Assembly (NCBI RefSeq): GCF_004010195.1
Contig: NC_057751.1
Location: forward strand, 2,641,286 to 2,684,184
DNA length: 42,899 bases
Direction of reading: 5' to 3'
Origin: Chiloscyllium plagiosum
Lineage: Eukaryota
This document shows, one piece after another, positions 1 through 41,983 of the stretch (position 1 is the first letter of the stretch; each line of letters starts with the position of its first letter). A model generated the notes under the pieces. The model was not told the origin of the DNA, ran no database searches, and saw only the letters and a list, made by a program, of their open reading frames with translations. Made by a program: the position numbers and the translations under genes.

Positions 1-163
1 TCCAAGGAGCAGGAGAATCGACGTTTCAGGCATGAGTCCTTCTTTCAGGCTCATGCCCGAAACGTCGATTCTCCTGTTCCTTGGATGCTGCCTGACCTGC
101 TGCGCTTTTCCAGCAACACATGTTCAGCTCTGATCTCCAGCATCTGCAGTCCTCACTTTCTCC
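1..163. mobile_element. Fold-back non-autonomous Penelope-like element derivative, family A (cut by window edge)
   Basis: 1-36 (tccaaggagcaggagaatcgacgtttcaggcatgag) is a near reverse complement of 50-85. Same family as 14247-14459 and 27923-28050. Hammerhead remnant ggctcatgcccgaaacgtc. Confidence 0.85.
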
Positions 164-879
164 CTGAGCTGGAATGAAGTTAAATAAAATGAAGGAGAAA
201 ATGTATGAATCCTGGTGATGGCCCATTGATTAGAAAAGCTGCTGATTTTGAAGTTAACCTGTGTTTTGCTGAAGCAATGAATTTCCATCAACTCTTACAA
301 CTCAGCAAATAATGGACTGAACTGTCACAGTAACTCTGGAAAAACCCTTGTTTGAAACAGATACAGTGAATCAGATGCAATAATGTGAATTATCTACTGA
401 ATTTCAGTTAAGTATGGCACAAATAATTGGATGAGACAAAGCGTGAGCAAGCTACTGTTGTGGTTGAAGTTCATTAAAAGCAAGAAATACGGATGTTTCC
501 AAGGAAACACAAGCAAGTCCAAATCAGTTAATTCAGTAAACTCGTCATAGGAAATGACACATTTGTGATGTTTGTCAGTGGTCAACTTTATCATTTGCTG
601 AAGACTGGACAATGTAAACATTTGAATACACAGCTTGTCTGTGTGGCAAAAAGGGTATGAAAAAAATTGATTCACAGCACAATTTAGCTCGCTGAGGGAA
701 ACAATCATCTGATCAGCAGCTAGAAGATGGGACAGAGCAGGCTGATCACTTATCTGGCCTGATCTTCAGATAAGACCATGTAAACGGATGAACTTGTGAT
801 TGTCCGTATTTTATGGACAAGATGTTTGCAATATTTTTTTGAAGTATACCTTTCTTTAATAAAGAACATCAGGTAAAGG

Positions 880-1545
880 CTGTTGTCAGAACTGCCTGTG
901 TGTTACTGATATCCAGAATAAAGTGGGAATAAAAGCCTAGAGCTGAGTGGCTCTGGCAGAACCTAAACTGGATCTCAGAGAGTAGGTTATTGCTGAGCAA
1001 ATTCTGCTTGTTTGTGCTGTTGGTGGCACCTTCCTTCACTTCACTGAAGATCAAGATTCGATTAACAGTGCAGTAATTAGCTGGGTTTGATCTGTGCTGC
1101 TTTTGAGTACAGAACATACCTGGGCAGTTTTCCACATTGTTGCGTGGATGCCACTGGAAGCTATACAAGAATAACTTGGCTCAGGGAGGTGTGCTTTCTG
1201 GAGCTCATGCCTTCAGTACTCTTGCTGGAATGTTGTCAGGGCCCATAGTTTTTGCAGTATCCAGTACCGTCAGCCATTTCTTGATATCATGTGGAGTGAA
1301 CTGAATTGGCTAAAGACCAGTATCTCTGACTCAAGTGACATCCAGAGGAGGCTGAGCTGGATTATGTTATCAGCATTTCTGTTTGTTGTGAATGCTTCAG
1401 CCTTATCTTTTGCAGTGATGTGCGGGTACCCTCATGACTGAGGATGGAGATATTAGTGAAGCTTCCTCCTACAGTGGGTGTTTGATTGCCCACCACTATT
1501 CACGACGGAATGTGGCAGGACTGCAGAGCTTAGATCTGATCCATT
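880..1545 (-). mobile_element. Old CR1/L2-clade LINE, reverse transcriptase N-terminal fragment (decayed)
   Basis: Minus translation around 970-1140 (WKTAQVC..KQHRSNPANYCTVNRILIFSEVKEG..LLSNNLLSEIQFRFCQSHS) resembles the LINE RT motif WK.A.V.P.HKK....P.NYRPISLL...SK..E....Q.GFR. Confidence 0.75.
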
Positions 1546-1579
1546 TGTTTGGACCACTGCAATCCATTAGGTGTAGTGT

Positions 1580-1934
1580 GCAAGGTTTGTGAAGGTTTGT
1601 AGCTCAGGTTGAGGTTTAGGGTGTAGGTTTGCTCGCTGAGCTGTAGGTTTGATATCCAGACCCAGTACAACCCATGAACAAAACCAACGTTATCTACAAA
1701 ATTCCATGCAAGGAAAACAAACGCATAGATCTCGATGCCATCTATCAACCCCTCAGAAAACGAACATGAAATGACATCACCACAAACCCCAGGAACCCCA
1801 TCCAGGGGAAAGATATAAATAGAAAGGAGACAACAGCTTCGCTTCACTTGGAGGTCGCCACTGATGATGTTACCTAGCCAGGTAATGAAACGTCTGGATA
1901 TCAAACCTACAGCTCAGCGAGCAAACCTACACCC
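1580..1934 (+). mobile_element. Internally deleted Penelope-like element (family D) with inverted terminal arm
   Basis: 12-bp TSD taggtgtagtgt at 1568-1579 and 1935-1946. Perfect 45-bp inverted repeat 1617-1661/1892-1936. GIY-YIG remnants PVQPMNKTNVIYKIPCK (1662-1712) and NKRIDLDAIYQPLRKR. Confidence 0.85.
1858..1897 (+). ncRNA. Minimal type I hammerhead ribozyme motif
   Basis: CCA-CTGATGA(1861-1867)-T-GTTACCT-AGCC-AGGTAAT-GAAA(1887-1890)-CGTC-TGG. 7-bp stem II, stem I CCA/TGG, predicted cleavage after C1894. Confidence 0.8.
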
Positions 1935-2094
1935 TAGGTGTAGTGTTATTAGAAAGGGAGTTCCAGGATTATGACCCAGTAACAATAAAGGAATGGCAAT
2001 GATGGTAAATGGCTTAGAAGGAGACCTGCAAAGGGTGGTGTTCCCATGTATCTGCAGCCCTTTTTCTTGATGGAAGTGGTCATGGGTTTGGAAC

Positions 2095-2208
2095 GTGAAA
2101 GCTGAAATAACTGCGGATGTTGTGAATCAGAAACAAAGCTCAGCAGGTCTGGCAGCATCTGTGAAGAGAAATCAGAATTAACGTTTTGGATGGAGTGACC
2201 CTTCCTCA
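2095..2208 (-). mobile_element. Single-arm PLE derivative, family B
   Basis: 11-bp TSD gggtttggaac at 2084-2094 and 2209-2219. Minus strand reads ctgaggaagggtcactccatccaaaacgtt (decayed hammerhead). Similar to 12003-12263 and 37553-37802. Confidence 0.8.
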
Positions 2209-2359
2209 GGGTTTGGAACATAATGTCTAAGGAGCCTTGCTGAGTTTCTGCAGTGCATCTTGTAAATAGTACACACTGCTGCAACTGAGCATAAATGTTG
2301 GAGGGAGATATTTGTGAATGCAGTGCCAGTCAAGTGCGTTCCTTTATCCTGGATCATTC

Positions 2360-3775: not shown

Positions 3776-4120
3776 GACTCAGTGTTGATTATGGTCCAGT
3801 TCAATGCCTGAGGGCAATCCACTATTGTTAAAGGCATGATGTGAAAAATTGTTGTGCTTGTTTGAAACGCATTCGAGAGAGTCACATAGTGCTTCCAGAC
3901 GGGCTTCTTACCACAGCAGGGAGTACTGTGAATAAGACAGTGTCAGTAGGCGAATGTGTAACCTTGGCAATAGAGAATGGAATTAAACCAGATTTTAAAG
4001 CTGGACACAGCAAAGTGTGACAGAAGCGGTGTCAGTTAGACACACACAGTAGGATGGTAATGACAACTGAGGCAGACATTTCTTTGAGGGACTGAAACAT
4101 GCAAAAACAACATTCTGAAC

Positions 4121-4346
4121 TGAAATAACACCACAGAGGCTGGAATCCCATCAAGCCACCCTTTATGCATTGTACTTGACACTGATCAGCTTCCTCAGAG
4201 GCAACTCTCAGAGTGAACAGACTCTGTGAGACTCCTGTTCTTATCTGTCAGCCAGGGCTCCCTGATTGAACCAGGTTAACAGCCCCAGTGGGGGAACCCA
4301 AGATTTTTGTGAGGTCGCCCTGGCTGACCTTATTACAATCACTACA
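4121..4346 (-). mobile_element. Short solo LTR (226 bp)
   Basis: TG...CA termini and 5-bp TSD tgaac at 4116-4120 and 4347-4351. A related segment (catcaagtcaccctttat) occurs at ~41568-41585. Confidence 0.75.
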
Positions 4347-4599
4347 TGAACCTCAGAGACAAAGAAAAAGAAAGTTACACTTGCATTATGCAACAAATCT
4401 ATGAATATATTGCCAGCTCCTTGTTCGATTCATACACCAAAGATGGGATTCTGTTTTATTGTTCCATTGAGAGGATTTAAGAGATAGTCAGGCATGTACT
4501 ACTCAAACAGTGACCTTTCCAGTTCCTCAAAACTATGTAAATACAGTCTTTTATAAGTAAGAAACACTTCAGGTTTGTTTTGCTCTCCATACGTAAAGA

Positions 4600-5133
4600 C
4601 ATTGGTCTCCCTCCTATAGGAAGGATGTTGTGAAACTTGAAAGGGTTCAGAAATGATTTACAAGGATGTTGCCAAGGTTGGAGGATTTGAGCCGCACGGA
4701 GTGGTTGAATAGGCTGGGGCTGTTTTCCCCAGAGCGTCTGAGGCTGAGGGGCGACCTTATAAACGTTTATAAAACCATGAATTGCAGAGACATTTTTTTT
4801 TTCCCCAGAGCAGAGGAGTTCAGAACGAAAGGACATAGGTTTAGGGTGAGAGAGAAAAAAAATCTAAAAGCGAAATAAGGGACAACTTTTTCACGCAAAG
4901 GGTGATGCCTGGATGGAATGAGCTGCCAGAGGAAGTGATGGAGGCTGGTGCAATGACAACACTTAAAAGACATCTGGATGGGTATATGAATAGGAAGGGT
5001 TGAGAGGGATATGGGCCAAGTGCTGGCAAATAGGACTAGATTAAGTTAGGATATCTGGTTGGCATGGACGAGTTGGGCCGAAGGGTCTGTTTCCGTGCTG
5101 GATATCTCTGCAACTGTATGATCCTATGACTGT
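4600..5133 (+). mobile_element. HER1/CR1 LINE, 5'-truncated 3' end
   Basis: MLPRLEDLS..LNRLGLFS.ER.RLRGDLI.VYK; gggccgaagggtctgtttcc 3' UTR; high similarity to 25808-26350 and 27045-27620. Confidence 0.92.
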
Positions 5134-5439
5134 GCAGAATCAGACTGCTTTAGTGAACATGTTTTTATATAAAGATGTGTTTATGAATAGAGTATCTAGA
5201 GTATATTTTTGAAATAAAAAAAATCAGAGGTTCACTCTGAAGAGAACACTGCATTGTGAAAGCGACTGTACTGAGGGAGTGTTGCATTTCACAGATTAGA
5301 ACTCAGGACCTCTGCTTTTTCAGAGGAAGGACAATATTGAGACAGAGTTCCACTGTCAGTGCGCCTCCACGTTTGGAGGATCAGTACTGATGGAATGCTG
5401 AATTATCAGACCTGTTTTTCATTTGATCACTCGATGTGA

Positions 5440-5803
5440 GAGTATTTATTGATCGCCCCAAGTCATCATGAGAAGGTTGTGGGGAGCTGTTTCCTTGAAC
5501 CGTTGCAGCCTTTGGAGTGTATGTATATACTGTTTGGAAAGGAAGTCCAAGATTTTAAGCCAGCAATAGCGAAGGAACAGTAATATATTTCCAAGTCAGG
5601 ATAATGATTGGCTCAGATGAGAATTTGCAGATGGTGGTGTTCCCACATCTCAACTGCCCTTGTCATTTTGGGTGGTTGAGATTGCAGATTTGGAAGGTGC
5701 TGTTGAAAGAACATTGGTTAATTTCTGCAGTGCGTCTTATAGATCGTACACACAGTTGAGGGAGTGAACCAGTCAAGCCACTGTTTTGTCCAGAATGATG
5801 GTC
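5440..5803 (-). mobile_element. 3' region of the old LINE family
   Basis: Collinear with 2640-3030 (atatatttccaagtcaggat..ggtggtgttccca..). Confidence 0.7.
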
Positions 5804-6105
5804 AACACTGAGGGAATGCTGCACTGTTAGGTTCATCATTTTTGGATGAGACAGTAAACAGAGGTCTCATCTGTCCTTTGAGGTTGACGTAAAAGAGCTG
5901 ACAGTTGCTACTGTGAAGAAGGGCCTGTCCCTCTCTCCCAGTATCTTGGGTCAATATTAATACTGAAAAGCACATTGTCATGGCATTCCCACATTGTGTT
6001 TGTGAGATCTTACTGTGCATAAATTGACTCCTGCATTTGTAATATTGCAACGGTGATTACAGCAGAAAAGTGTTTCATTTACTGTAAAATGCTTTTAGCA
6101 GACAA
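5804..6105 (+). mobile_element. Deu-domain SINE (SacSINE1/AmnSINE1-like)
   Basis: actgagggaatgctgcactg..ggatgagacagtaaacagaggtctcatctgtcct..gacgtaaaaga..tgtttgtgagatcttactgtgcataaattgact matches my recollection of the DeuSINE core. Confidence 0.7.
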
Positions 6106-6495
6106 AGGGCAATTGCGATGTTATAAAAGATGAACTCACTGAAATGAACTGCAAACCAGGCTTGGAAGAGTTCAACAGTGACACCGAGTGCATATTTCTG
6201 AATTCTTTTTGTCACTGAAGGCATCAACTTAAGAAAAAAGCATCAAACTGCTGAAAAATGTGTGAGAGGTCAGACACTTGGTAAGAATACAAATACTAGC
6301 AGAGAATGACTCAAAGATTAATCAGGAGAAGGAAATTAATAATGACAGAAAGCTGGCTACAAAGATGGAAACAGATAGGAAGAGTTTCCACAGATGTATA
6401 AAACATAAAAGACGAAGTGAAGTGAGTGTTGGTCCTCAAGGGAGTCAGAATGGGGAGATAATAAGGAAATGATGGAGGAAATGATAAAGTATTTT
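6106..6495 (+). mobile_element. CR1 ORF2 linker fragment (between endonuclease and RT)
   Basis: KLATKMETDRKSFHRCIKHKRRSEVSVGP resembles the CR1 LA..IK...K.F..Y...KR.....VGPL motif. Confidence 0.65.
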
Positions 6496-6934
6496 GGAGG
6501 ATGGGCTATGATGAGATTGGTGGTAGAATTGGGTGAGACATCTGACAAGGCCAGTCTTGACATTTTGCACCATGTTTTATACTTTTGTATGGTGATGTGG
6601 GGGGTTTCTTGCTAGTGCCAATGTTGGGAGAGTACTTAGTGGTTCATTGAATGCCTTGTTAACAGCCCAATCACCTTATTAATATTCAGCCTCCACTTTA
6701 CCAAATGCACCAAACAAGCTCGACATCAAGAAATCTTGACAAGGGAATCAGAGCATGTATCTGGCAGCTGACTCCAAAGAACCTCCGAGTTGGACCTTGG
6801 GCATCAATATCTCTGGAAACACTCCATAGACACTGGACACACGCACCCATATCCAGGGGCATTGGCATCCTCCAAATGTATCCTTTTTTAAGAATCATCA
6901 TGACATATCTTCATTCCACTTGCACAATTCAGCT

Positions 6935-7211
6935 ATTACGAGGGGGCATAGCTTTAAATTAAGGGGCGGGTAGGTATAGGACAGATGTTAGGGGTAGGTT
7001 CTTTACTTAGCGAGTCGTGAGCTCATGGAATGCCCTGCCAGTAGCAGTGGTGGACTCTCCCTCTTTACGAGCATTTAAACGGGCATTGGATAGGCATATG
7101 GAGGATAGTGGGCTAGTGTAGGTTAGGTGGGCTTGGATCGGTGCAACATCGAGGGCCGAAGGGCCTGTACTGCACTGTATTCTTCTATGTTCTATGTTCT
7201 ATGTTCTAATG
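6935..7211 (+). mobile_element. CR1 LINE 3' end with (TTCTATG)n tail
   Basis: gggccgaagggcctgtactgcactgtattcttctatgttctatgttctatgttct tail. Confidence 0.85.
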
Positions 7212-7914
7212 CTTATGCACTTCAGTACTGAACCTCAGGCTGCAGCAGCAACTGCAACAGCTAGGTGCTCAAAGACACAAAATCACTTATGGACTAGAGC
7301 AGGCTGCTTCTATGGGCTCTTTGCCTGCTGTCATATTGTTCATTCACTCCGAGTCTCACAGTATCACTGCCTTCTATTCACTTTCCTTGCTGTTGTGCTA
7401 TTCCCCCTGAGCTCGCACTATCAGGGTCATATCAGACCGGCACAAAGGCAGGAAACTTGTTATAGTTGTCAGGATTTTTCAGCCAAGAAAAGCAGGACAG
7501 CCTTCACAATGTCAGGACCAGCCCCTGATGCCAGTCCAGCGGTTCGACATGGTCAATCACTCACCGAGGCAGTTAGAATCACAGTGTTCTCCACGTAAGG
7601 GCTATGGAGCCAAGCACCATTATTTTTCTGCCATATTGGAGACTTCTTTCCTCTTAGAATGAGAGAGAGGCAAGTATTAAAGGAGGTGCACGTGGGTGGC
7701 ATAGATGTGACATTTTGTCCACATGAGGAGGTGTCCTGAGCATGTGATTAAACAGTGTCAAGAATATGTAGAGTTACTGCTATCAGGGTTTGTGCTGGTA
7801 ACAGCAAATGATGGAAGATGTTGCAGGCAACAGTGAGAGCAGTAAAGCATGAACCTTGGTGGGAGATGGGTCCAGTAGCAGAGATAGAGCATGAGATATT
7901 GGACAGAAGATAGG

Positions 7915-8150
7915 TGCATTGACCTGAGAAGGACACTGACAATTTTCCTACAAGTTCCGAGCATTCTTCCAGATGGCTGAGACTATGACAAACTTGATGG
8001 CAACCTCAGACCAGGCTGGCATGATCTGGTGTGATGGCCTCCATTACTAGTCCTAGAAGAGGGTGAAGTCCTGTCTCTTCTCACGTTGTTGAGCAGAGTT
8101 TCTAGGTCCCGGCCCACAAAGCGTGATGCTCATTTCCTCATGTCCAGATG
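7915..8150 (-). pseudogene. Decayed Myb/SANT-like DNA-binding gene, Harbinger/PIF transposon type
   Basis: Minus translation across frameshifts and a stop: MRK*ASRFVGRDLETLLNNV..AWSEVAIKFVIVSAIWKNAR..CRKIVSVLLRS, the F...L..LL...W..VA..V.....R....C+K....L pattern of Myb_DNA-bind_5/MSANTD. Confidence 0.6.
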
Positions 8151-8354
8151 AATATTGGGAACCGTGTGGGGCAGCTCTGGACTGATGGCACTTGTCTGGA
8201 TGCCCTCCGGGCTTTAAAAGAATGGGCAAGGATTGCTGATTAATTACAGAATATCCCAGCATTGGCACAGTCTCAGATGGATCAGGATGTCAGGAAAACC
8301 ATTGTGGTGGGATTGGTTGTTAATGAAGCAAGTTTGGGAAGGAAGTACATTTGA

Positions 8355-8655
8355 CACGAGCTATGAAGAGAGTTTGAGTAGGTTAGGTTTATTTTCACTA
8401 GAAAAAAGGAGATTGGGGGGGACCTGATTGAGGTTTACAAAATCATGAAGTGTATAGACAGGGTAGATAGAGAGAACCATTTCCCAGGGTGACGGATTCA
8501 ATAATGAGAGGTCACGGTTTCAACGTGAGAGGTGGAAAGTTTAAGGGGATACACACAGCAAGTACTTCACACAGAGGGTGATGGGTGTCTGGAACGCGTT
8601 GCCAGCAGGGATGACAGAGGCAGGCATGGTAGATTCATTTAAGATGCGTCTGGTT
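8355..8655 (+). mobile_element. CR1 LINE near-3' fragment
   Basis: SYEESLSRLGLFSLEKRRLGG. Confidence 0.8.
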
Positions 8656-8729
8656 CACCTCCAACACCTAAAAATATCTCAATAAAGGAGCAGCTCTTCC
8701 AGCCACAATTTCCTCTTCCTCCATCTTGG

Positions 8730-10285
8730 GATTACCCATTTGTTAATTTTTCAAAATTCTCTCAATTCAGGAAAGCTTCCATCGGACTGGAAAATAGCAA
8801 ATATAACTTCTCAATTGAAGAAGGGAGGGAGATGGAAGACATGAAACTTTAGGTCAGTTAGCTTGACATATGTGGTGAGGAAGGCGTTAGAAATGATTAT
8901 AAAGGAGATTATACGTTTGTTGAGAAATGCTCAAGGTTATTTGGAAGAGTCAGGATTATTTTATCAAAGAGAAGTCATGTTTGACTATGTAATTGACATC
9001 CATTGAAGGATTAACATATGCTGTGGATAAAGGGGAGCCTAGCAAGAAGGCATTTGATAAGGTGTTGCATCAGATGTTATTGCAGTAAATCAAAGCTCAT
9101 AGTGTGGAGGATAACGTATTAGCATGGATAGAAGATTGACTGGCTGGTAGAGAACAGAGTCTGCATAAATAGGTCTCTTTGTCTGATTAACAGGATGGGA
9201 TGAGTTGAGTCCTGCTTGGATCTATAATGGGGCCTTACCATTTTAAAATTTAAATCAATGAATGGGATGAGGGGCTGGGGGAAGTTGGTGCTGGGGACAA
9301 GGTAAGTGAACAAATAGCAGCTAAGTTCACAGACAACCCCAAGACTATTGGAAACGAAAGTACACTTCAAAGGAGACGTAAGCAAGTTGCAGATAAAGAT
9401 ATTATATGTATAATAATAGGTTGAGACAGCAAGAGTGGGTGAAATCCTGGCAAATGGAATATCATGTGAGAAAATGTTAAGTTGCTCATTTTGTCAGAAA
9501 GCATCAAACTGCAGAGAATTACCAAAACAGAAAACGACTGTAGAATTCTGATTCAATTGTTCCGTTGCTTGAGTACAATGATGTGGAGGTCCCAGTGTTG
9601 GATTGGGGTGGACAAAGTCAGAAGTCACACGACACCAGGTTATGGCCCAACAGGTTGATTTGAAATCACAAGCTGTCAGAGCCCCCCATTCCTTCCTCAA
9701 GTGACAAATCTGGTGTCATGTGACTTCTGACTGAGTTACAAAACTTTGCTGCAAAGTCTCAGGCATGATCAAATCAGCTAATAATAGAAAGTTATACATT
9801 TTATTGTGAGAAGAATTGAACATAAAAGTAAGAATGTTATGCATCAGTTATACAGGACATTGGTGAGATTGCACCTCAAATACCATATTTAATTTTGGTC
9901 TCCTTATTTCTGGAAGGATATAAATGCATCAGATGAGGTTTACTAGACTGTTAATTGGAATGAGTGTCTTACAAGGATAGATTGGACAGGCTGAACTTAC
10001 TTCCAACAGAGTTTCAGAACCAGGGTCACTGTTAGAGATATGGAGAACATTTTTCCCTTCAAGCATTGTGCAACTTTAGCACTCTCTGCTACAGAGGTAG
10101 TGAAGTCAGGATCATCCAATGTTTTTAAGACAAGGTGGATGAATTATTGTTCTGCAGGGGATTCAAGGATTATTGAAGGTATGTGAGAACATGGAAATGT
10201 GCTAGACATCCATGATTTTACTGAACAGCAGTGCAGGCGAGGGGAACAGTGAACCAGCCCTGTTCCTATTTCATATATTACGATA
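8730..10285 (+). mobile_element. Old, heavily decayed CR1 ORF2 (RT through 3' end)
   Basis: Remnants gactggaaaatagcaaatataac (DWKIANI), aaggcatttgataaggtg (KAFDKV), tggcaaatggaatat (WQMEY), ttttggtctccttat (FWSPY). Confidence 0.75.
9579..9731. mobile_element. Fold-back PLE derivative, family C
   Basis: agtcagaagtcacacgacaccag is inverted against ctggtgtcatgtgacttctgact. Imperfect TSD tgagtacaa (9570-9578) / tgagttacaa (9732-9741). Confidence 0.75.
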
Positions 10286-12002: not shown

Positions 12003-12263
12003 ATGGAAACCGAAAGAACTGCAGATGTTGTAAATCAGAAACAAAAACAGAAATTGCCGGAAAAGCTCAGCAGGGTCTGGCAGCATCTGTGGAGAGAAAT
12101 CAGAGTTAATGTTTTGGGTCCAGCCACCCTTCCTCAGAAGTGGGCAGTTAGGGTTAGGGTTAGAACTGGACAGTTCTGAGGATGAACTAAAACAATAACA
12201 TTGATTTCTCTCTGCAGATGCTGCCAGACCTGCTGAGCTTTTCCAGCAATTTCTATTTTCAGT
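12003..12263. mobile_element. Fold-back PLE derivative, family B, with telomere-like spacer
   Basis: Inverted arms ~12045-12138 and ~12175-12260. TTAGGGTTAGGGTTAG at 12148-12163. 14-bp TSD with 2 mismatches: tctcaacaatacct (11989-12002) / tctcaaaaatgcct (12264-12277). Confidence 0.85.
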
Positions 12264-13208
12264 TCTCAAAAATGCCTCTCTTTGTACATCTCCCCATCAC
12301 AATACAAAATACATTATCCTTGCATTTGGTTGAATTGCTGATTTGCAATTCTTGCATCCAACTGTCTTTCATTTTAATAGTAAATGGCGAGTTAACAGTG
12401 CAATGTTTACAGTCATTACCTCCAGCACCTTTCTGGGATGAACTATTGTGAACACAGTCTGTTGATGTTGACTCCAAGTGTGAACACCTTACACCATCGC
12501 CCCAGTAACACATTTTGACTTGTAACCAGCCGTTGTCAGTCTTGAGAACATGTCACATGAGACTCTCCATTGCGTCTTGCCATAGATACAGTTCAAACCA
12601 CATAATTTTACAAACCTCATAATTGTAACCCCATTCTCACCCAGTTATTTCCCGTCCTCAAATCCTGTTTCCACATTCTAATATTGACATGAATCACAAA
12701 TGATCAATAGTTTCTTCGAGTCAAGTACCTTCGTGCGGCGGAGCATAGGCTCTTCAACGGGATGGTTGAGTTCAGAATCTTCTCTCCGTCAGCCTTAGAC
12801 AAATGTAAATGCACCCTTGATGCAAAAGTGAATGTGTGCTGCTGTTAACAAAATGCAGTCATTGAGGCATTCATTGTATACCATGCCAATCAATATGACA
12901 AGGTCAACTTTTCCTGCAGAGAATAGTTTTATTGAAGAGCTGCTCGTGTGCCACAGAACTATAGCCTCCCTCCAAAACTGTCTTTTTTATAAGTTCTCGT
13001 TGAAACCCTGTGCAATTATTGAGCTTTGCCCACCTTTGATTCAAAGCTTTACAGTTCAAATATCTTGAAGCTGTAAGATATGTCAAAGACTTTTAGCAGA
13101 CTTTCATGAGATTAACTACTGTATCAGATATATTGTCTAATTATCAGTGTAAGCTGTTGCATTGTGACTAAGATTCATTCAATACAACCAAAATTGGTAC
13201 AATAAGTT

Positions 13209-14459: not shown

Positions 14460-14538
14460 TTCATACACCTCAACCTACTCTCCATCCCTTGATTGGTTGT
14501 ATAAAGACCGTTTACTTTTACTTTTCTGTGGCTTTGAT

Positions 14539-27620: not shown

Positions 27621-27624
27621 AAGT

Positions 27625-29312: not shown

Positions 29313-30965
29313 ATTGAATTGAATTGAATTTATTGTCACGTGTACTGAGGCACAGTGAAAAGCTTTGTCTTGCGAGCAGGACAGGCAGATCACAGAGTGA
29401 AGTAGCATAGACAAGTAAATATAGGTAAACAGCAACAAAAACAAAAACACAGATCCAGGTGAATGTTAAGAGTTTGTGAGTCCATTCAGTATTCTAACGT
29501 TAAATTATCCGTAGTGTTAGGTGTATTAGTCAGGGTAAATACAGGGGGTGGGTTTCTCTTCGGAGGGTCGGTGTGGACTTATTGGGTCAAAGGGCCTGTT
29601 TCCACACTGTAGGGAATCTAATCTAATCTAATCTAATCTAATCTAATCTAATCTAATCTAACAGTAGGTAGAAACTGAAACGAAACCAGCTGGTGCATGT
29701 GTTCAGGCTTCTGTACCTTCTCCCCAGTGGTAGAGGTTGTAGAAAAACATTGCTAGGATGGGATGGATCTTTGAGAATGCTAGCAGCCTTTCCTTGACAG
29801 CGAACCTAGTAGATGGATTCTGCAGATGGGAGGTTGACCTTTGTGATTGTGCGGGTCGAGTTCACCACTCTCTGTAACAGTCTCCGATCTTGAATGGTAC
29901 AGTTGTCATACCAGGTAGTGATACATCAAAACAGAATGCTCTTGATAGCGCACCTATAAAAGTTAGCAAGGGTATTCACCGTCATGCTAAATTTCCTCAG
30001 CTGCCTGAGGAAGAAGAGACATTGTTGGGCCTTTGTAACCAGTGCGTCTGCATGAAGAGTCCAAGAAAGCTTGTTGTGGATGACTACTCTCAGGAGCTTG
30101 ACACTCCCCACTCGTTCCACCTCTGTGCTGTTAATGTGTAGGGGGGCATGAGTAACATCCTGGCAAAAGTCAGTAATGAGTTCCTTGGTTTTGCCGGCAT
30201 TGAGAGCTAGGTTGTTCTCAGTGCACCATTTTTCCAGGTCTTCCACCTCCCGTCTGTCGTCTGTTTCGTCACCATCTGACATTTGACCGACTATGGTGGT
30301 GTCATCAGCGAACTTGTAAATGGCATTAGTCTTGTGTTTGGCGACAAAGTCATGGGTATACAGTGAGTACAGTAAGGGGCTGAGTATACACCCCTGGGGG
30401 GCTCCAGTGTTGAGTGTTAGTGAGGATGAAATATTGTCCCCAATCTTCACTGATTGTGGCCTGTGGGTCAGGAAACTGAGGATCCAGTTGCAGAGAGTGG
30501 GGCTTAGTCTGAGATCACGAAGTTTAGTAATCAGTCTCGAGGGGCTAACAGTGTTAAAGGCTGAACTGTAGTCAATGAGTCGGATTCTCACGTAGCTGTT
30601 CTTGGTGTCAAGATGTTCTCAGAAGGAGTGAAGGGCAAGTGATACGGCATCTGATGTGAATCTGTTGGTCCAGTAGGCGAATTGGAGTGGGTCCAGATTA
30701 GTGGGGAGGCTGGAAGTGATTAATGCCATGACCAGCCTTTCAAAGCACTTCATGACCACCGAAGTTACGGCTCATGCTGCATGAGCTTTCTTAGGCACGG
30801 GGATGATGTTGGCCCTCTTGAAACAGGCAGGGACAGTGGCCTGCTGTAGGGAGAGGGTGAAGATATCCGAGAAGATCTCTGCCGGTTAATCTGCGTATGC
30901 TCTGAGTGCACGGCCTGGTACTCTGTCTAGTCCCATCGCTTTCACTGGATTTACATGAATAAAAT
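29313..30965 (-). mobile_element. Rex1/Babar-type LINE, 5'-truncated
   Basis: ORF 29926-30591: IDYSSAFNT, TGAPQGCILSPLLYSLYTHD, KFADDTTIVG, KAQQCLFFLRQLRKF. (ATTCA)n tail at 29313-29330. Confidence 0.9.
29499..29659 (+). mobile_element. 5'-truncated HE1-type SINE with (AATCT)9 tail, nested in the Rex1 LINE
   Basis: Matches 35787-35916. aatct x9 at 29615-29659. Possible TSD tctaac (29493-29498, 29657-29662). Confidence 0.85.
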
Positions 30966-31524
30966 CTCACTTCTTTATGTGTTGTGGATAAGAAAGCTGG
31001 CAACAATAACCTCCTGGGTCCAGCATTGTTGCTTCTTATTTGCCTTCTTAGTACAGAGGCAAATGTTAAATAAGAAAATCCAAAAGCACAACGGACTCTG
31101 AAAAACAAACAGCACTGATACATGGAGAAGTCTCCCCCTTTGCTACCCATTCCCTTTTCATATTTAATCAGTCAGTTTATGTGTCAATTAACTTTAGTCA
31201 GCCATTTAAGTCTTGCAAGACTGACAAAAAAGTCATGATCAGACAACTGTTGGGGAATTTAGTGACACCAAGGATAAACTTGGATTGAGTGCCCTTCAGA
31301 AAAAGTTCCCTGGACTAATTCCTGGGATGCAGGATTGTGTTGTGAGGAAAGGTTGAAAATGTTGGGCCCAATTTTTTAAAAATTTGTTGACAGGATGTGT
31401 GTGTTACTAGCTCAACTAATATTTGTAGCCCATACCTAATGCTTGAGAAGGTGTAGTGAGCCAACTTCTTGAACTCCGATAATCCATATGGTGGAGATCA
31501 ACTTACAGTACTGTTAGGGAGGGA

Positions 31525-33213
31525 TGATTTGGAGATGCCGGTGTTGGACTGGGGTGTACAAAGTTAAAACTCACACAACACCAGGTTATAGTCCAACAGG
31601 TTTATTTGGTTACTTGGTTAACAGTCCAGCACCAGCATCTCCAAATCAGGTTTATTGGGAAGCACTAGCTTTCGACATGCTGTTCCTTCGTCACGTGGTT
31701 GTGTATAAGATCGGAGGACCACAGAATTTGTAGCAAAAGTTTACAGTGTGATGTAACTGAAATTATGTATTGAAAATGATGTGGATTGTTTGTTAAATCT
31801 CTCATCTTTTCGAATGAATATGTTGTTTTCAGTTCTTTCATATGTAAATTGCAGAACTTTTTTGAAGTTGCATTCTCAAGGGAACTTTAACAATTGGTGT
31901 CGTGTCAGCCCAAGTAATGCATTGAAGGTGTGAGGTGCCCTGTATGAGACTCTCTGTGCCACACTGGTCAGACTGATTCTAATCTAAGAGACATATTTAC
32001 AGAATCTTACATGGATTCTTGCGGTTTTTGAGCAAAGTAAAATTCTGCAAGTACAAATTCACCCCGCAAATGTGTGTGTGTGTTGGGGGGATGGGGGGAT
32101 GGGGGGATNNNNNNNNNNNNNNNNNNNNNGAGTGTGTGTGTGTGTCTGTGTCTGTGTGTGCGTCTGTCTGAGTGTGTGTATGTCTGTGTGCCTGTGTTTG
32201 TGTGTATGTAGTGCAGTGGGGTCATCTGTAGCGTGATAGGAACCTAAGGTCCTGATTTAGGCCATTCCCATGGGTACCAACCTTGGCTATCAGCCTCTTG
32301 TTATGACACGGGGTAAACTCTCCTACTTAACTTAAAACCAGCAACACAGAAAAGATGTATCCCGTGCAGTAATCTGTAAAATTCGAGTGGCCAAGAACTA
32401 TTTAAAGTGAAAATTAACAACTTTATTTCTTAAGAACATAGAATAATAGTATAACAGAGAATAATTTACTCATAACTATTTACCATTCCTTACTCTAACC
32501 TATCTGTTACCTTTCCTTCTATAATAGTAGTCCGATAAAACTCCCAATTAAAATTTACAAAAAACAACACTTCTTATCTCAAAACCAGGCAGCTGTAGAT
32601 TCTTGTCTTTGGATCTTCCTGTGTCTTCTTTTCACCTTATTCGGAATTTCTGCATTACATGTTACTGATCAAAAAGGCCTTTTAAGACAGCTCTTTTTTC
32701 AGGCAGTCTGTTTCCATGCTGGGCCACGGCAGTTCTCATCTCAACTGTTCAATTTTCTCCGTTCTTATACTCCAGAGCATCAGATTATGTCATTGGCCCT
32801 CAAGATTGTCAATACACTCAATACAAACTTGATTGGAATTTGATATGTTTCAGATATAATTTAAACTGATTGGCCGAATTCAAATTTGTTTTTGTCTCCA
32901 AGCAACGAACTAATTGAGTTGATCGCCTCAGTGTTACATTGTTACTTTTTTGAGTACACTTGGTGCTATATCCGGTAGTTATGCTGCTTTTAACTCTCTT
33001 AAAGTACACCCACATCTTCATAACACTCTGCTCAACCACTTTGCATAGTTGCCTGTCCTGAAGTCTGCCTTTCGAGGACGGTCACCCAAAGCTCCAAAGT
33101 CGAATGTCCCGGACCACTGAAGTGTTCTCTGACTGGGAGGGAACACTCCTGTCTGTTGATTGTTGTGCAATGTCCATTTGTCCATTGCTGTAGCCTCTGC
33201 TCAGTCTCACCGA
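31525..33213 (-). mobile_element. 5'-truncated Penelope-like element (family C), interrupted by a solo LTR
   Basis: GIY-YIG IGETEQRLQQWTNGHCTTINRQECSLPVREHFSGPGHS (33030-33213) resumes as RLIAKVGTHGNGLNQDLRFLSRYR* (32222-32298). 13-bp TSD with 1 mismatch: tgttagggaggga (31512-31524) / tgttagggatgga (33214-33226). Confidence 0.88.
32299..33025 (-). mobile_element. Solo LTR, 727 bp
   Basis: Perfect 8-bp inverted termini TGTTATGA...TCATAACA. 4-bp TSD ctct (32295-32298, 33026-33029). AATAAA on the minus strand at 32422-32427. The host PLE sequence rejoins when it is removed. Confidence 0.9.
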
Positions 33214-34859: not shown

Positions 34860-36760
34860 CCTAGTTTCTTGTTTGTTGTTGGTAAGGATCACAATTGCAG
34901 GAGAACGCTGCACGATGATATGCAATATGTGGGAAATCAAGGACACACCCACTATCCATGGTGGCCATGGACACAGAAAGTACGTTCAGCTGCAGCTCCT
35001 TATTGACCGCATGGAGCAGCTTGAGCTTCAGATGGACTCACGATAGAGCATTGATAATGCTGTGGACACCATAAATAGCACATTGAGCGAGCTGGACACA
35101 TCAAAAGGAAGGGCTCCACAGATAGAAAAGCATTGAGTGGTCACGGGAAGACTAGGAAGCCTGGGTAGGCTATGCAAGATTCCTCTCTTGCCATTCCTCT
35201 GTCCAACAGATATACCATGTTGGATACTGTAGTGGGGGATGGCATCTCAGGTGAAAGCAGCAGCAGCGAAGTTTGTGGCACCATGGTTGGATCTGTTGCA
35301 CAGGAGGGGAGGAAAAAAAACTGGAAAAGCCTGAGTGATAGGGGACTCAGTTTAAGAGGAAATGAAAGGTGCTTCTGTGGCTGCAGATAAGATTCTCGAA
35401 TGGTACGTTGCCTCCCTAGTGGCAGAGTCAGGGATGTCTCAGAAATTACTGCAGAACATTCTGAAGAGGGAGAGTGAACAGCCAGTAGAAGTGGTGCATG
35501 TCAGTACTAACCACAACATGGGTGAAAAAACAAATAGCGTCCTGCAACCAGAATTTTAAAGAGTTAGGTTGTAGATTAAAACGGAAGCCCACTCTGGTTG
35601 GATGGCACGGTGGCTCAGTGGTTAGCACTGCTGCCTCACAGCGCCAGACACCTGGGTTCAATTCCCGCCTCAGGTGACTGTCTGTGTGGAGTTTGCACAT
35701 TCTACCCGTGTCTGCATGGGTTTCCTCCGGGTGCTCCGGTTTCCTCCCACATTCCAAAAATGTGCAGGTTAGGTGAATTAGCCATGCTAAATTGCCCGTG
35801 GTATTAGGTGAAGGGGTAAATGTAGGGGAATGGGATTGGGTGGGTTGCACTTCGGCGGGTCAGTGTGGACTTGTTGGGCCGAAGGGCCGGTTTCCACACT
35901 GTAAGTAATCTAATCTGAAACCACTAGGTTTCTGAAGAAAGGTCACTGCACCCAAAACATTAACTCTCCAGATTTTCCAGCATTTTCTTTTTACTCCTGA
36001 AGTTGTAATCTCTGGATTACTTTCAGTGCCATGTGCTAAGTGTAGGAATAGGAAGATAGGTCAGATGAACACATGGTGTAGGAAGGAGAGCTTTGGAGTT
36101 TTGGATCATTGGAACATCTTCCACCTGAATCTGAATGGATCCAAGATCATTGGAAGGTTTGCTCATCCTGTCAGGCATGTTTTTAACTGATATGTCAGGG
36201 GAATGGGGCACAGATTAGATGTAAAGTTGAAAGCAAGGTCCAATCCCATAAATAAGGAATGTGAGGACAGTCCAGTAAGCAGAAAAGGGATGAACAGGAT
36301 AAAGTACACGGGAGGTCTGGAAATCTCAATTTTATCTATTCTAATGCAAAGAGCCTTACTGGAAAGGCAAATAAACTTAGCGCATTCATCAGCATGTGGG
36401 AATATGACATCAGTGAGACGTGGCTGAAGGGAGGATCAGAGTGGCAGCTCAATATTCCAGAGTCTGGAAGCTTTTGGTATGATGGGGTATCGTGGGGCAA
36501 GGCAGAGGGTAGGGGAGTAGCTGGAGGCATTGCATTGTATATGGGAAGTAATGAGGAAGGACTTCCTACAAAGTTCTTCAAGTAAGGCCATCTGGGTCGA
36601 GCTCAGAAATTAAAAAAGGGGGCTAGGATTATACTACAGGCCTCCCAACAGTCAAAGGGAGATGGAGGAGCAGTTATGCAGGCAAATCACAGAAGGCTAT
36701 GAAAAAAAAACTTATAGTTGGTTGGGAATTCAACTTTGCTGATCCCATTGGACTGGGGAT
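34860..36760 (+). mobile_element. 5' portion of an old CR1: ORF1 (Zn finger/coiled coil, SGNH esterase) and start of ORF2 APE endonuclease
   Basis: ICNMWEIKD..KYVQLQLLIDRMEQLELQMD, PLSNRY, VIGDS, VVHVSTN, VVISGLL, ISETWL, IWVELRN, YYRPPNS. Confidence 0.85.
35597..35916 (+). mobile_element. Full-length HE1-type tRNA-derived V-SINE
   Basis: Pol III A box tggctcagtgg, B box ggttcaattcc, V-domain gggtttcctccgggtgctccggtttcctcccaca, HER1-like 3' tail and taatctaatct end. Confidence 0.92.
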
Positions 36761-37552: not shown

Positions 37553-37802
37553 GTTCAATAAAAACTGAAAGAACTGCAGATGCTGTAAATGAGAAACGAA
37601 AACAGAAGTTCCTGGAAAAGCTCAGCAGGTCTGGCAACATCTGTGAAGAGGAATCAAAGGAAATGTTTTAGGTCCGGTCATCCTTCCTCAGAGCTGATCT
37701 TGCAGATCTGAAGAAGGGTCACCAGACTCAAAACGTTTAATTTGATTTTTCTTCACAGGTACTGACAGAATTGCTGAGCTTTTCCAGCAACTTCTGTTTT
37801 TG
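37553..37802. mobile_element. Fold-back PLE derivative, family B
   Basis: Inverted arms ~37598-37692 and ~37706-37802. TSD tgtcaaaga (37542-37550, 37803-37811). Hammerhead remnant CTGAAGA-A-GGGTC-ACCA-GACTC-AAAAC at 37708-37734. Confidence 0.85.
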
Positions 37803-38469
37803 TGTCAAAGAACGCTGCTGGATATTTTAAGTCCAGACTGAAGTGTTGAGTCCTTGTACAACATCTTATCATCTGAGTGTGAACTATATCCTGAATATTA
37901 CGATATTAAAGGTCCTATAAGATGGGACCTAAATTACTTGTGGTATTGCTCTGACAGAATGATCCAATTTGTCCTGCTTTCATCTCTTTTCTCATAATCC
38001 TGCAAAATCTTTCCTTATGGAATTAAGATCCATTTTCCTTTCACAAGTTAGTTTTGAATCTGCTTTTGGCAGTACATTCTACATAAAGATATTCTCATCT
38101 CCCCTCTGGTGCTTTTGCCATTAATCTGAAATCTTTCTGGTACTTTTGCCAATTGCATGTTTCAGTGACGAACCCTCCCACCATTAGAAACAGTTTCTCA
38201 TTATTTTGTCATTGAAATTATCCATCATTCTGAGCATCTTGATTGAATATCTTCTTAACCATCTCTGCTTTGAGAAGAATACCTCAGGCTTCTGACATCA
38301 CTGTTCAGAATTATGGAGACTAGTTAGAAGAAACCAAATTTCTTGAAACCAGAGAAGAGACAATTCTGGGGAGCTTTAACAGAATTGCCCAAGATGATGA
38401 AAGTCAGTCCAAATGGCACAAGTTTGTACAATGCACTGAGGATGGAGAGACATGAACATTTGACACAGG

Positions 38470-38690: not shown

Positions 38691-38691
38691 A

Positions 38692-39220
38692 TGTGTATCT
38701 GGATTTCCAGAAGGCACTTGACAAGGTGCCACACAAAAGGCTGCTGCGTAAGATAAATATGCACGGTGCTACAGGTAGTGTATTAGCATGGATAGAACAT
38801 GAGTTAACAAACCGAAAACAAAGAGTGAGAATAAATGGGTGTTTTTCAGGATGCTGATCAGTGGTTTATGGTGTGGCTCAGGAATCCATAGTGGGACTGC
38901 ATTTGTTTACAATTTACATCTATGATTTGGAGTTGGGGCCCACATGTCAAATTTCACTGATAAAACTAAGATGAATGGGAGAGCAACGTGTGCCAAAGAC
39001 ACTGAGAGTCTCCAGAGGGATATGGAGAGGTTAAGTGAGTGGGCAAGGGTCTGGAAGATGGAGTCCAATGTTAGCAAATGTGAGGTCATCCATTTTGGGA
39101 GGAATAACAGCAAAATTGATTATTATTTAAATGGTCAAAAATTGCAGCATGCTGCTATGCAGAGATACCTGGGTGTGCATGAAACACAAAAAGTTGGTTT
39201 GCAGGTGCAGCAGGTAATTC
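38692..39220 (+). mobile_element. CR1 RT core fragment
   Basis: VYLDFQKALDKVPHKRLLRK; NFTDKTKM; WKMESNVSKCEVIHFG. Confidence 0.88.
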
Positions 39221-39244
39221 TGAGCGAGTTTATCTCAGAATCCA

Positions 39245-39438
39245 GGAAGAGAGTGATGACTCCAAGTGCTGGAGATCAGAGTCGAGAGTGTGGTGCTGGA
39301 AAAGCACAGCAGGTGGATCGACATTTCAGGCAAGAGCCCTTCATCAGGAATGGGCCTCATTCGTGATGAACGGTTCTGCCTGAAGCACAATTCTCCTACT
39401 CCTCTGATGCTGCCTCACCAGCACCACACTCTCGACTT
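39245..39438. mobile_element. Fold-back PLE derivative, family A-related
   Basis: Perfect 10-bp TSD tcagaatcca (39235-39244, 39439-39448). agtcgagagtgtggtgctgg is inverted against ccagcaccacactctcgact. Confidence 0.85.
39317..39351 (-). ncRNA. Minimal hammerhead ribozyme motif
   Basis: Minus strand ATTC-CTGATGA-A-GGGC-TCTT-GCCT-GAAA-TGTC-GAT. Confidence 0.7.
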
Positions 39439-39448
39439 TCAGAATCCA

Positions 39449-40300
39449 TCTTACCTTTCTTTATAGGCTTTTTCGTGGCTTTCTGACCTTTAAAGATTTC
39501 TGAATCCTCTAGTTTCCTTGAATCTTTGCTACTTTGTAAGTATTCGGTTTCAATTTGACACCCTCTATTTCCTGAAGTATTCCTCGCTGATTATTCCTTC
39601 TCCTACAGTCCTTCCTTTTCACTGCTATGTACTTTTGCTGAGCACTGTGAAAATCGCCTTGAAAGTCCTCCACTGTTCCTCAATTGTCTCACCATATAGT
39701 CTTTGCTCCTGGTCTACTTGAGCTAACTCCTCCCTCATCCCATTGGAGCCACCTTTGTTTAAGCACAAGACACTGGTATTGAATTTTACCTTCTCACCTT
39801 CCAGCTATATTTTGAATTTAACCATAAAGTGATCGCTCTTTCTGAGAGGATCCCTAACTATGAGGTCATCAATTGTTCCTGTCTCCTTTACACAGGACCA
39901 GATCTAGGATAGCTTGCTCCCTCATCGGTTCCATTAAACACTGTTTGAGGAAACTATTGCAGACTCATTCTATGAACTCCTCAAGGTTGGCTTGAGCAAT
40001 TTGGATTGACTATTCAAAATATAAATTAAACTTCCCTATGATAATTGCCATACCATTTCTGCATTCATGACTTATTTCTTTGTTTATTGCCAGCCCCATT
40101 CTGATATTGTTATTGGGTGGTCTATAGACTATGCCTATTTGTGACTTTTTCCTCTTACTGTTTCTAATTTCCACTCATTTTGATTCAACCTTTTGCTTCA
40201 CAGAATCTATGCCGTTTCTCACAACCACCCTAATGCCATCCTTAAGTGTCAGAGCGACATCACTTCCCTTTCCTTCCTCTCTGTCTTTTCAAATAGTCTG
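39449..40300 (-). mobile_element. CR1 ORF2 APE endonuclease fragment
   Basis: Minus translation YRPPNNN, IIIGKFN, EPMREQAILDLVL, SESDHFMVKF. Confidence 0.8.
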
Positions 40301-41289
40301 AGCTTCTAAACATTTCATCACAAGGGAGATTGATTGGTATCTTTGTTGAAGTAATCAGCAAACAATCCCTTTAACTCACTGTACATCAATCTTGGGCAAG
40401 TCTGTAACGTACATGTCAACTAAGACTATTTCCACATGGTAAAAAAGCCCCAACTCTGTGGCCACAGTGTCTCAACAAAGGAAAGCCAGGCCTGCTAACC
40501 CACTGAATCAATTGGATTAACAATGTGCATTTTCAAGCAGAATGGTTAGCATTGATACATTAGAAGTGTATTGATTGCTAATTGCAGTCAAAGAGTTTCT
40601 CTCCCGTGAGAAGTGGTGTTATTGATCTGTTCAGAAACAGTGATGAGCCCAAACTGACACCCAGCTTTTAACAAGCATAGTGGTGCAATCAATTGTGAGA
40701 AAGTGGTCTGGCTGGAAAAAAAATTGCAGTTTACCTGATTTACGAGAACAGTTAATAAGGAAGCTAATTTCTGCCTCCATTGAAAATATATCTGTCTCTG
40801 ACAGTCAATGCAATTTTGCTCACAATATGTCATTTCTTTTCTGTTTCAGAAGGATGGAATTGTGCTCTAATAAGTGGATCAAATTTGTGAGGAACAGCTC
40901 GATCAGTGATCTTGACTGGGATAAAACATGCCAGACAGGTTGGGGTAGGTGGTCTATAGTTAGTCGAGTACAGAGAACGTGTTGGTGAAAATTATTCAGA
41001 GATCTGCTTATTTGTTCCCAGTAACCCTCTCATCCTGTGTAGGTGCAATTTAGGAGACTTCACAGTTAGTCTTGGAGTGAAATAAATTGCTATGATGCAT
41101 TGTCAAGCCCCACGAATGAATAATGACTGCTTGGTTAACAGTGGAAGTGAGCAACTGAAGTATGATGAAATAAAGAGGAGAGAATGACATGTAAAAATAT
41201 TACAATGTTTTTTTAAGGGAAAGATGATCTCATTCATTATCTGTGATGTTTGGTCACATGAGTTCCGAGACAAAACTGCTCCAAGTTCT

Positions 41290-41535
41290 CATCAGATAGT
41301 TGCTGAACAGTGACAATCTTGCACCAACATTCCATACCTAGAGATAAATAACTTCGCCATCAGCATCAGGAAGTCAGATGTCATCAACCAGGATGCTATG
41401 TGTCAACAGTAACAGTAACCCAGGAAATTGTTGAGCATTTCACATATCTGTGTTCCACGACCACTAGTCGTCTATCACTTCCAATGCTGGAAACAGCATA
41501 CACACAGCAGAAGCTGCAACTGCTAATGCCCAAGC
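41290..41535 (+). mobile_element. RTE-clade LINE RT fragment
   Basis: ISIRKSDVINQD..EIVEHFTYLCSTTTSRLSL resembles RTE ISIKKT.VM..EVV..FTYLGS.I.S..SLD. Confidence 0.65.
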
Positions 41536-41592
41536 TTGAAACAACTCTACAGAAGCCAGTATCTTGTCATCAAGTCACCCTTTATTTACAAA

Positions 41593-41983
41593 GTTAAAAA
41601 TCACACAACACCAGGTTATAGTCCAATAGGTTTATTTGGAAGCACTAGCTTTCGGAGAACTGTTCCTTCATCAGATGATTGTGGAGGTTAAGATCATGTT
41701 CACAGAATTTATAGCCAAAGGAGTCCATTGTCATGAAGATGTGATACAGTAAACAATCTTAGATTAAACTTTCATCTTTTATTCTGGGATGTGCTGGTTT
41801 CTGTTCTTCGATATGTAAATCCCAGAACTTCTTTTAAATTACATTCTCTGGATAGCTCAGGTCTTTAAACTATAGGTGTAAAGTCTGTCTGTGTCCCAAT
41901 ACTGTCTCAGACTGACAAACCTTCTGTATAGTTTTACAGAGTTATACGTGGATTCATGCAGTTTTTGAGCAAAATAAAATGTA
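41593..41983 (-). mobile_element. Family C PLE 3' region, inserted into an LTR-like sequence
   Basis: Collinear with 31560-32045. 9-bp TSD atttacaaa (41584-41592, 41984-41992). Minus-strand hammerhead CTGATGA-A-GGA-ACAGTTC-TCC-GAAA-GCTA at 41646-41674. Confidence 0.82.

Follow-up and report, generated by a model that had tools for sequence, protein, structure and literature searches.

What are the short, largely fold-back repeats with hammerhead cores that are found in the genome of the shark Chiloscyllium plagiosum: elements in their own right, or products of a known retroelement? The question is raised by a stretch of 42,899 nucleotides (assembly GCF_004010195.1, contig NC_057751.1, positions 2,641,286 to 2,684,184 of the forward strand; hereafter the window), in which four families of such repeats, A to D, occur as elements of 110-390 bp. 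The original prediction, made from the letters of the window, derived them from Penelope-like elements (PLEs) and took them for a separate, amplifying class resembling retrozymes. We find that the feature is real and the PLE origin correct; the observation is partly confirmed and its interpretation partly supported. With a probability of roughly 0.78, we regard the repeats as short insertion products (here called stubs) of endonuclease-bearing PLEs, likely by-products of copying and not a new self-propagating class.

The families were located by self-BLAST of the window and then read in sequence, which recovered all four where they had been predicted (Table 1). The bare pattern CTGANGA-N6-36-GAAA is not enriched in the window (8 matches, with 6.4 expected from shuffles). 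A strict descriptor of the minimal hammerhead ribozyme (min-HHR) was built from features in Cervera and de la Pena 2014 (PMC4209133), who describe a G10.1-C11.1 pair, one unpaired nucleotide, and a palindromic 15.2-16.2 element (ACGU or AGCU) that allows a dimeric helix III. The descriptor comprises the core boxes and a paired stem II, an optional unpaired 5' nucleotide, and, where helix III would otherwise stand, a 2-base palindrome and then U-H. It was applied to 443 kb, consisting of the window and 400 kb of adjacent genome (loci L061-L100) picked without regard to repeats, and gave 17 matches, against 1 in the reversed-sequence control. All 17 require one unpaired nucleotide 5' of stem II (offset 1; between A9 and 10.1), and all 17 have the palindromic 15.2-16.2 pair without loop 3. 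Thus the predicted core stands as a motif beyond chance, but it is intact in only three window copies, at 1861 (D), 28047 (A) and 41674 (C), where the CUGANGA and GAAA boxes surround a paired stem II. The core of one further copy, A4, is near-intact; the remaining copies are decayed. In family B, all three window copies with a readable core have AAAAC instead of GAAAC, whereas about 63 of the first 100 genome matches listed retain G12 (an eye count). In those without G12, CCG has become CCA or CTG, as CpG decay would produce, and family B would therefore formerly have had GAAA.

The hairpins indeed differ between families and still pair, as predicted: stem II is GGGC/GCCC in A, GGGUC/GACCC in B, GGAGC/GCUCC in C and GUUACCU/AGGUAAU in D. 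Its third pair varies between families (G-C, A-U, U-A, C-G). A fifth hammerhead family, related to D and absent from the window, was observed at L083 9125 (+) and L089 448 (-), with the stem GUCACCU/AGGGGAC. The closing pair (10.1-11.1) is G-C in A, B, C and this fifth family and G-U in D, and between D and the fifth family a U-A pair is replaced by C-G. Within family C, one GGAAC/GUUCC double change is present among the 100 matches listed, together with single-change intermediates. Stem II pairing thus appears, from these comparisons, to be maintained through compensatory changes. The palindromic element is GAAACGUC in A and D, GAAACGUU in B and GAAAGCUA in C. By its features the shark motif matches the published PLE min-HHR (PMC4209133), a ribozyme proposed to self-cleave as dimers or with protein help; cleavage of the shark copies is a prediction. 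Genome-wide, the exact core pattern has 61,397 matches for family A, 8,800 for C, 2,351 for B and 2,232 for D, with none in each control. The sum, at least some 75,000 intact cores, is far above the 4,000-9,000 of coelacanth and Xenopus, and family A is very uniform in comparison with the variability stressed for PLE min-HHRs (PMC4209133).

The derivation from PLEs is borne out by longer copies, in which the arms continue in the same sense into the 3' untranslated region (UTR) and the GIY-YIG and reverse transcriptase (RT) coding of a PLE. At L071, L088, L084 and L079 the order is endonuclease coding, about 240 nt of UTR, hammerhead, and then two termini described below, T1 and T2. A divergent PLE RT lies upstream of the family C arm at L078. 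In the window, a minus-strand open reading frame (ORF) at 28570-29058, beside a family A arm, has homologues in sharks and rays in which RVT_1, with a YIDD box, is accompanied by a CCHH-like stretch and an IYCIxC...YIGETGR motif; the GIY-YIG Pfam model matches them weakly. The frame that opens at the stem II ATG of family A terminates inside the tail, the stretch between the two termini. On this sequence evidence, families A to D are read as the 3' modules of endonuclease-bearing PLEs, extending from the ribozyme to the putative reverse-transcription start sites.

One part of the original prediction fails here. It had placed the ends of families A and C at the termini of coding PLEs at 27923 and 31525. 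A single coding PLE spanning 27923-31525 was considered and rejected: PLE coding is confined to 28254-28408 (+) and 28570-28860 (-), fragments that lie around a run of 161 N. The RT at 29929-30618 (-), which stands between A and C, has RVT_1 and ALKBH8_N matches and a FADD box and is not matched by PLE proteins, and for these reasons we read it as LINE-like (long interspersed element). Position 31524 is the 3' end of a distinct, truncated family C copy, beside which no PLE coding sequence was detected; A and C are therefore not the termini of one PLE.

The ends of the arms were examined in two samples. Sample 1 holds the first 30 genome matches of the intact family A core (L031-L060), chosen blind to structure and representing 29 distinct loci; sample 2 is the 443 kb described above. 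An arm begins at or near CUGANGA...GAAA and runs for about 90 nt to a tail-less terminus, T1, or about 125 nt to a tailed terminus, T2. Both termini are fixed, 39 nt apart, and the stretch between them is the tail. Single arms use the two about equally (17 at T1 and 19 at T2, read by eye). At the other end, 20 of the 29 loci in sample 1 begin at the ribozyme edge (12 fold-backs, whose junctions lie within about 0-32 nt of the ribozyme, and 8 singles), and 9 continue into PLE UTR. Of the 56 arms in sample 2, 7 extend as far as the UTR; the start falls at reference positions 195-204 in 24 (the box begins at 204), at 206-222 in 12 and later in 13. Young family A copies mostly start 0-9 nt upstream of the ribozyme.

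This border is real in young copies, as it coincides either with fold-back junctions or with target site duplications (TSDs). Seven single arms have TSDs of 9-15 bp that directly abut the ribozyme edge, where the maximum in shifted-flank nulls is 8 save for one outlier, and tail-less single arms with exact TSDs of 10-15 bp are found at L038, L045, L073 and L012. Across copies the TSDs vary between 9 and 17 bp, and in fold-backs they are exact up to 17 bp. Those predicted for the window copies are exact in A2, A4, B1 and the family D unit (9-13 bp) and imperfect in C1 and C2. Three of the seven exact single-arm TSDs (L038, L045, L070) end in ATT immediately before CCTGAAG, and the first three bases of these "elements" may be target sequence. 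Such TSDs fit either the ATT cleavage preference of the anole PLE enzyme discussed below or a microhomology join. A start of the arms where the ribozyme cuts would point to cleavage in vivo; this idea was dropped: starts at reference positions 232-236 were few in the selected flanks and amount to 1 of 56 in the unselected 443 kb, and they also fit ATT microhomology. By eye, an initiator-like TCATTC is seen at the 5' border of family A; it is not clean in family C.

In a census of family A neighbours across all sequence examined (623 kb), 39 pairs stand head to head and 1 stands tail to tail, and a same-strand neighbour within 300 bp was counted 5 times. Among the 39 fold-backs, 35 could be evaluated: 31 combine T1 with T2, none has T1 or T2 at both ends, and 4 have one unclassed end. 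Hence the 39-nt tail is on one arm only in 31 of 31 pairs with both outer ends classed; were the two termini, which singles use about equally, chosen independently, just half of the pairs would be mixed. A one-sided tail is likewise seen in the window's C and D units. Moreover, arms within a pair are more alike (mean identity 0.941, with 7 of 31 pairs identical) than arms from different loci (0.904; Mann-Whitney p 7e-5), and paired arms have rare loop variants in common. Both arms of a fold-back are thus likely to derive from one template.

The junctions are mostly one-off events. Genome-wide, 7,898 loci are tight pairs, in which two intact cores face each other head to head with no more than 30 nt between them; roughly one in four intact family A cores belongs to such a pair. 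The first 50 of these loci show at least 33 kinds of junction, and among 45 fetched pairs nearly every junction is different. Some arms overlap by up to 26 nt (gaps to -26) within either the palindromic stem II or the region of CCTGAAG/CTTCAGG; others are separated by 1-32 nt of filler. Recurrent junctions in the first 50 tight loci are GAATC or its complement (about 11) and GAATGATTC or its complement (5), and these are trivial because they are what results when two complete arms meet. The original prediction had named sharing of junctions across loci as a check on an amplifying class and unique junctions as its refutation. The junctions are largely unique, and only the complete-arm joins recur. 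Direct tandems are rare: no same-strand pair within 1 kb is present among the first 100 family A matches listed, and the sole tandem-like pair is at L027, where two full family A arms (1499-1627 and 1672-1792, +) follow one another in direct orientation with 45 nt between them. No other arrangement observed could give a retrozyme-type unit.

Much of this pattern has precedents. In Craig, Yushenova, Rodriguez and Arkhipova 2021 (PMC8557442), PLE insertions are described as strongly 5'-truncated and adjoining an inverted 5'-truncated copy, with a tail of 30-40 bp, often at one end only, a hammerhead in the pseudo-long terminal repeat (pLTR) and variable TSDs. The shark repeats agree with endonuclease-bearing PLEs (Penelope/Poseidon, Neptune, Nematis) in 5' truncation, inverted copy, one-sided tail, hammerhead and variable TSDs, and they differ in that truncation is extreme and, in young family A, clustered at the ribozyme 5' edge, and in that the one-sided tail is strict among the 31 classed pairs where that text has "often". 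Cervera and de la Pena (PMC4209133) found PLE motifs to be widespread, mostly single or in opposite-strand pairs 100-700 bp apart, and held the single ones to be probably related to truncated PLEs; shark pairs are often only 0-30 nt apart. The closest biochemical counterpart is PAc, the Poseidon element of Anolis carolinensis, for which Frangieh et al. 2024 (PMC11167929) showed in vitro that two internal RT start sites bound the tail. A start site sits inside a stem-loop that is AC-rich and placed some 110 nt past the hammerhead, and the protein cleaves and extends both DNA strands, with ATT as the preferred cut site. The two shark termini that bound the tail, known from sequence, and the ATT endings of three of the seven single-arm TSDs resemble this system. 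The pairing of T1 with T2 is seen in the shark fold-backs; a coupling of the two within one event is unreported in the in vitro work on PAc. Folding to minimum energy brings, in each of the four families, an inner segment of the arm into pairing with the start of the tail and leaves T1 in the loop; the z-scores are weak (-2.2 to +1.1). The stems differ between families (AGAUGCUG/CAGCAUCU, CAGAUG/CAUCUG, CCUGUUGGACU/AGUCCAACA and AGCUCAG/CUGAGCU). This modeled hairpin may be the counterpart of the anole start-site stem-loop.

A course of events that would yield such stubs can be proposed. Following what is published for the anole element, the PLE enzyme would cut both target strands, each of which would prime a cDNA. 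One RNA would likely serve as the template for the two cDNAs, one begun at T1 and the other at T2; they would meet near the RNA 5' end by the ribozyme and be joined via the palindromic ribozyme stem or filler. A single stub would result when just one priming is completed. Stubs would outnumber long copies if the RNA starts just upstream of the hammerhead and so carries a 5'-proximal copy of the start sites that the enzyme can use. The stubs would be dead on arrival, with the hammerhead, whose cleavage is predicted only, riding along. We further propose, tentatively and with the odds against it in this specific form, that a dimeric PLE enzyme copies one RNA twice, using each start site once and each cut strand once. 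The RNA would start at the hammerhead, and its 5'-proximal start sites, in competition with the 3' ones, would give rise to the flood of stubs. The hammerhead would then be the 5' border of the copied module and not a release device.

Three other explanations were weighed against insertion as PLE by-products. That the repeats are DNA-transposon miniature inverted-repeat elements (MITEs), or replication-slippage hairpins with PLE-like sequence by chance, is suggested by their fold-back shape and by weak microRNA-like Rfam calls, and is highly improbable. Their TSDs of 9-17 bp are not of fixed length (the fixed 2-3 bp of DNA MITEs was not seen), just one of the two arms has the 39-nt tail, which makes them unequal, single-arm copies end at the same termini, and the arms are continuous with PLE UTR and ORF; mobilization through RNA, as originally predicted, is in keeping with these features. 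A closer competitor, less probable than not by a wide measure and still the strongest of the three, is that one cDNA primed at T2 reaches the RNA 5' end, folds back on the palindromic ribozyme stem, copies itself and stops about 39 nt short of its own start. Such snap-back copying, also a PLE by-product, would account for near-identical arms, for junction overlaps in the palindromic stem II or CCTGAAG/CTTCAGG, and for a tail on exactly one arm in every classed pair. However, T1 is an independent terminus, as the tail-less singles with exact TSDs listed above indicate. The published enzyme, moreover, cuts and extends both strands from two start sites at the borders of the tail (PMC11167929), and there is no known stop for self-copying at a fixed point.

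The third explanation is that stubs and fold-backs propagate themselves as non-autonomous elements, similar to short interspersed elements or retrozymes, each copy being a source of transcripts that are processed by the hammerhead and recopied in trans by PLE enzymes. A preprint by Li, Clavereau and Pollet (2026) defines retrozymes as head-to-tail tandem units that yield circular RNA and argues for an origin of the vertebrate non-LTR retrozymes in PLE pLTRs; it also notes solo monomers, and its sampling includes one chondrichthyan. As described there, non-LTR retrozymes and the shark repeats are alike in being small non-coding PLE-related units with type I hammerheads and solo monomers. Points in favour of self-propagation are the very high count of family A cores that are intact, the ratio of stubs to UTR-bearing copies (about 2:1 to 8:1), the discreteness of both ends, the L027 tandem and the recurrent GAATC junction. 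In contrast to the retrozymes of the preprint, shark pairs are head to head, with 39 such pairs against 5 same-strand neighbours within 300 bp, of which one is a real tandem; the junctions are mostly unique, and the recurrent ones are expected wherever complete arms meet. The RNA of a perfect 85-bp hairpin would be a poor template. Stubs lack an upstream promoter because they begin at the ribozyme edge, and loop and arm variants are common to stubs and long copies. RNA reads came from one poly(A) single-cell run, a library unsuited to the question of cleavage, and from two runs of unknown kind; one run contributed no reads. Over the family A arm they fall on both strands, mirroring copy number, and 94% continue into unlike flanks, as for passengers in other transcripts. 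The poly(A) single-cell reads contained no joints of unit-length circles, nor did their ends accumulate where the ribozyme would cut. For PAc, no RNA reads were found to terminate where its ribozyme cuts (PMC11167929). The separate retrozyme-like class is thus not upheld, and we consider self-propagation an unlikely explanation, behind snap-back copying and well ahead of MITEs.

Several observations weigh against the interpretation of the repeats as dead-end PLE insertion products, or limit its reach. The Rfam hammerhead models, suggested at the outset as a check, fail to recognize the motif; they gave no match in the window either at the gathering score or at E<=10, as expected because the motif is without helix III. 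The poly(A) single-cell library shows no pile of read ends that would mark an RNA 5' end by the hammerhead. Part of the start cluster at reference positions 195-204 does not consist of true ends: the older copies of CTGATGA type at L074, L079, L099 and L044 share another upstream UTR, and the boundary there is the end of similarity to the reference. L079 and L084 are attached to PLE ORFs. The ribozyme border is also not universal, as arms of family D fold-backs extend 170-450 nt upstream of the ribozyme; inverted pairs of this family are 340-900 nt apart. Since no strand difference in start-site use was seen for PAc in vitro, the strict pairing of T1 with T2 is not predicted by that work alone. 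Finally, some stubs may themselves be transcribed and copied anew; subfamily variants are common to stubs and long copies.

If the repeats are stubs, they make up a sizeable and easily misread fraction of the genome, one that can be confused with MITEs, microRNA-like hairpins and retrozymes, and filing them correctly averts false claims of new classes. The large, young family A would preserve the traces of PLE integrations in nature, tens of thousands in number. Its strict one-sided tail and clustered 5' ends would place in vivo constraints on a mechanism based so far on one in vitro system. The insertion pattern has already been described; we found no paper in the literature on hammerhead-bearing Penelope families of sharks, and the families themselves may be uncatalogued.

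Table 1. Hammerhead-bearing repeats, predicted hairpins and PLE coding fragments in the window (nt positions; empty cells, nothing to report)
Feature	Position	Strand	Description
Family A, self-BLAST	1-178, 14234-14462, 27924-28051, 39243-39314
Family B, self-BLAST	2135-2209, 12007-12268, 37562-37806
Family C, self-BLAST	9578-9681, 20593-20698, 31524-31739, 41587-41980
Family D, self-BLAST	1617-1661/1892-1936		45/45 inverted repeat
Family A fold-back, clipped by window start	1-163		Inverted arm 1-47, forward arm 48-163 ending at T2; core decayed or truncated at junction
Family A fold-back (A2)	14247-14459		T2 arm 14247-14363 (-), T1 arm 14367-14459; cores decayed; exact 13-bp TSD TTCATACACCTCA at 14234-14246 and 14460-14472
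Family A tailed arm	27924-28250	-	3' end 27924; continues into 200 nt of PLE 3' UTR; intact min-HHR 28020-28047, predicted cut after GUC, between 28020 and 28019
Family A fold-back (A4)	39244-39438		Near-intact core 39320-39347 (-), CpG decay in helix III; exact 9-bp TSD TCAGAATCC at 39235-39243 and 39439-39447
Family B single arm (B1)	2095-2209	-	Begins at ribozyme 5' edge; A replaces G12; exact 10-bp TSD GGTTTGGAAC at 2085-2094 and 2210-2219
Family B fold-back	12003-12263		Core decayed, AAAACATT
Family B fold-back remnant	13962-14072		BLAST recovers 14048-14071 only; rest read by eye
Family B arm	35928-35990	+	Internal deletion; core decayed
Family B fold-back	37553-37802		Right-arm core 37708, GGGUC/GACUC stem, A at G12
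Family C fold-back (C1)	9579-9731		Tailed arm (-) and short tail-less arm; core decayed; TSD imperfect
Family C fold-back (C2)	20594-20742		Junction deletes ribozyme 5' box; TSD imperfect
Family C 5'-truncated copy	31524-32043	-	Tailed 3' end 31524; core decayed; about 350 nt of family C UTR; internal rearrangement at 31610-31650
Family C 5'-truncated copy	41587-41980	-	Ends at tail-less terminus; intact min-HHR 41646-41674
Family D unit	1580-1935		Inverted arm with tail, 1580-1661; forward arm, 1662-1935, in which about 200 nt precede the intact min-HHR 1861-1894 (+); exact 11-bp TSD AGGTGTAGTGT at 1569-1579 and 1936-1946
Arm-tail hairpin fold, family A	27924-28019	-	Predicted
Arm-tail hairpin fold, family B	12003-12107	-	Predicted
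Arm-tail hairpin fold, family C	31524-31609	-	Predicted
Arm-tail hairpin fold, family D	1580-1658	-	Predicted
PLE endonuclease C-terminal coding fragment	28254-28408	+	88% identical to P0004 aa 291-342; inverted relative to adjoining family A arm; runs into 161-N stretch 28409-28569
PLE RT-endonuclease linker coding fragment	28570-28860	-	73% identical to P0004 aa 112-208

Upstream of the ribozyme in the family D unit, 1685-1765 (+) reads ...NVIYKIPCKENK..., which resembles the start of the PLE GIY-YIG motif followed by a stop. The unit may be an internally deleted PLE and not a plain truncation. L093 carries the family D body at 97% identity. Weak Rfam microRNA calls fall on two of the fold-back regions, mir-2831 at 20608-20698 (34 bits, with a gathering score of 90) and mir-4878 at 31521-31654 (22 bits); a microRNA or small nucleolar RNA identity for the weak matches was dropped, as they reflect the fold-back hairpin shape or noise.

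The window has two runs of N, at 28409-28569 and 32109-32129, the former exactly where the opposed PLE fragments meet, and N runs occur in or beside PLE copies at many other loci (e.g., L031, L049, L052, L057 and L060). Unrelated to the hammerhead elements are LINE-type RT fragments with RVT_1 matches at 29929-30618 (-), 25899-26927 (-), 17994-18242 (+) and 38926-39363 (+), and a repeat of 500-700 bp present in five places (4603-5127, 15346-15934, 18442-19151, 25808-26430 and 27045-27621).

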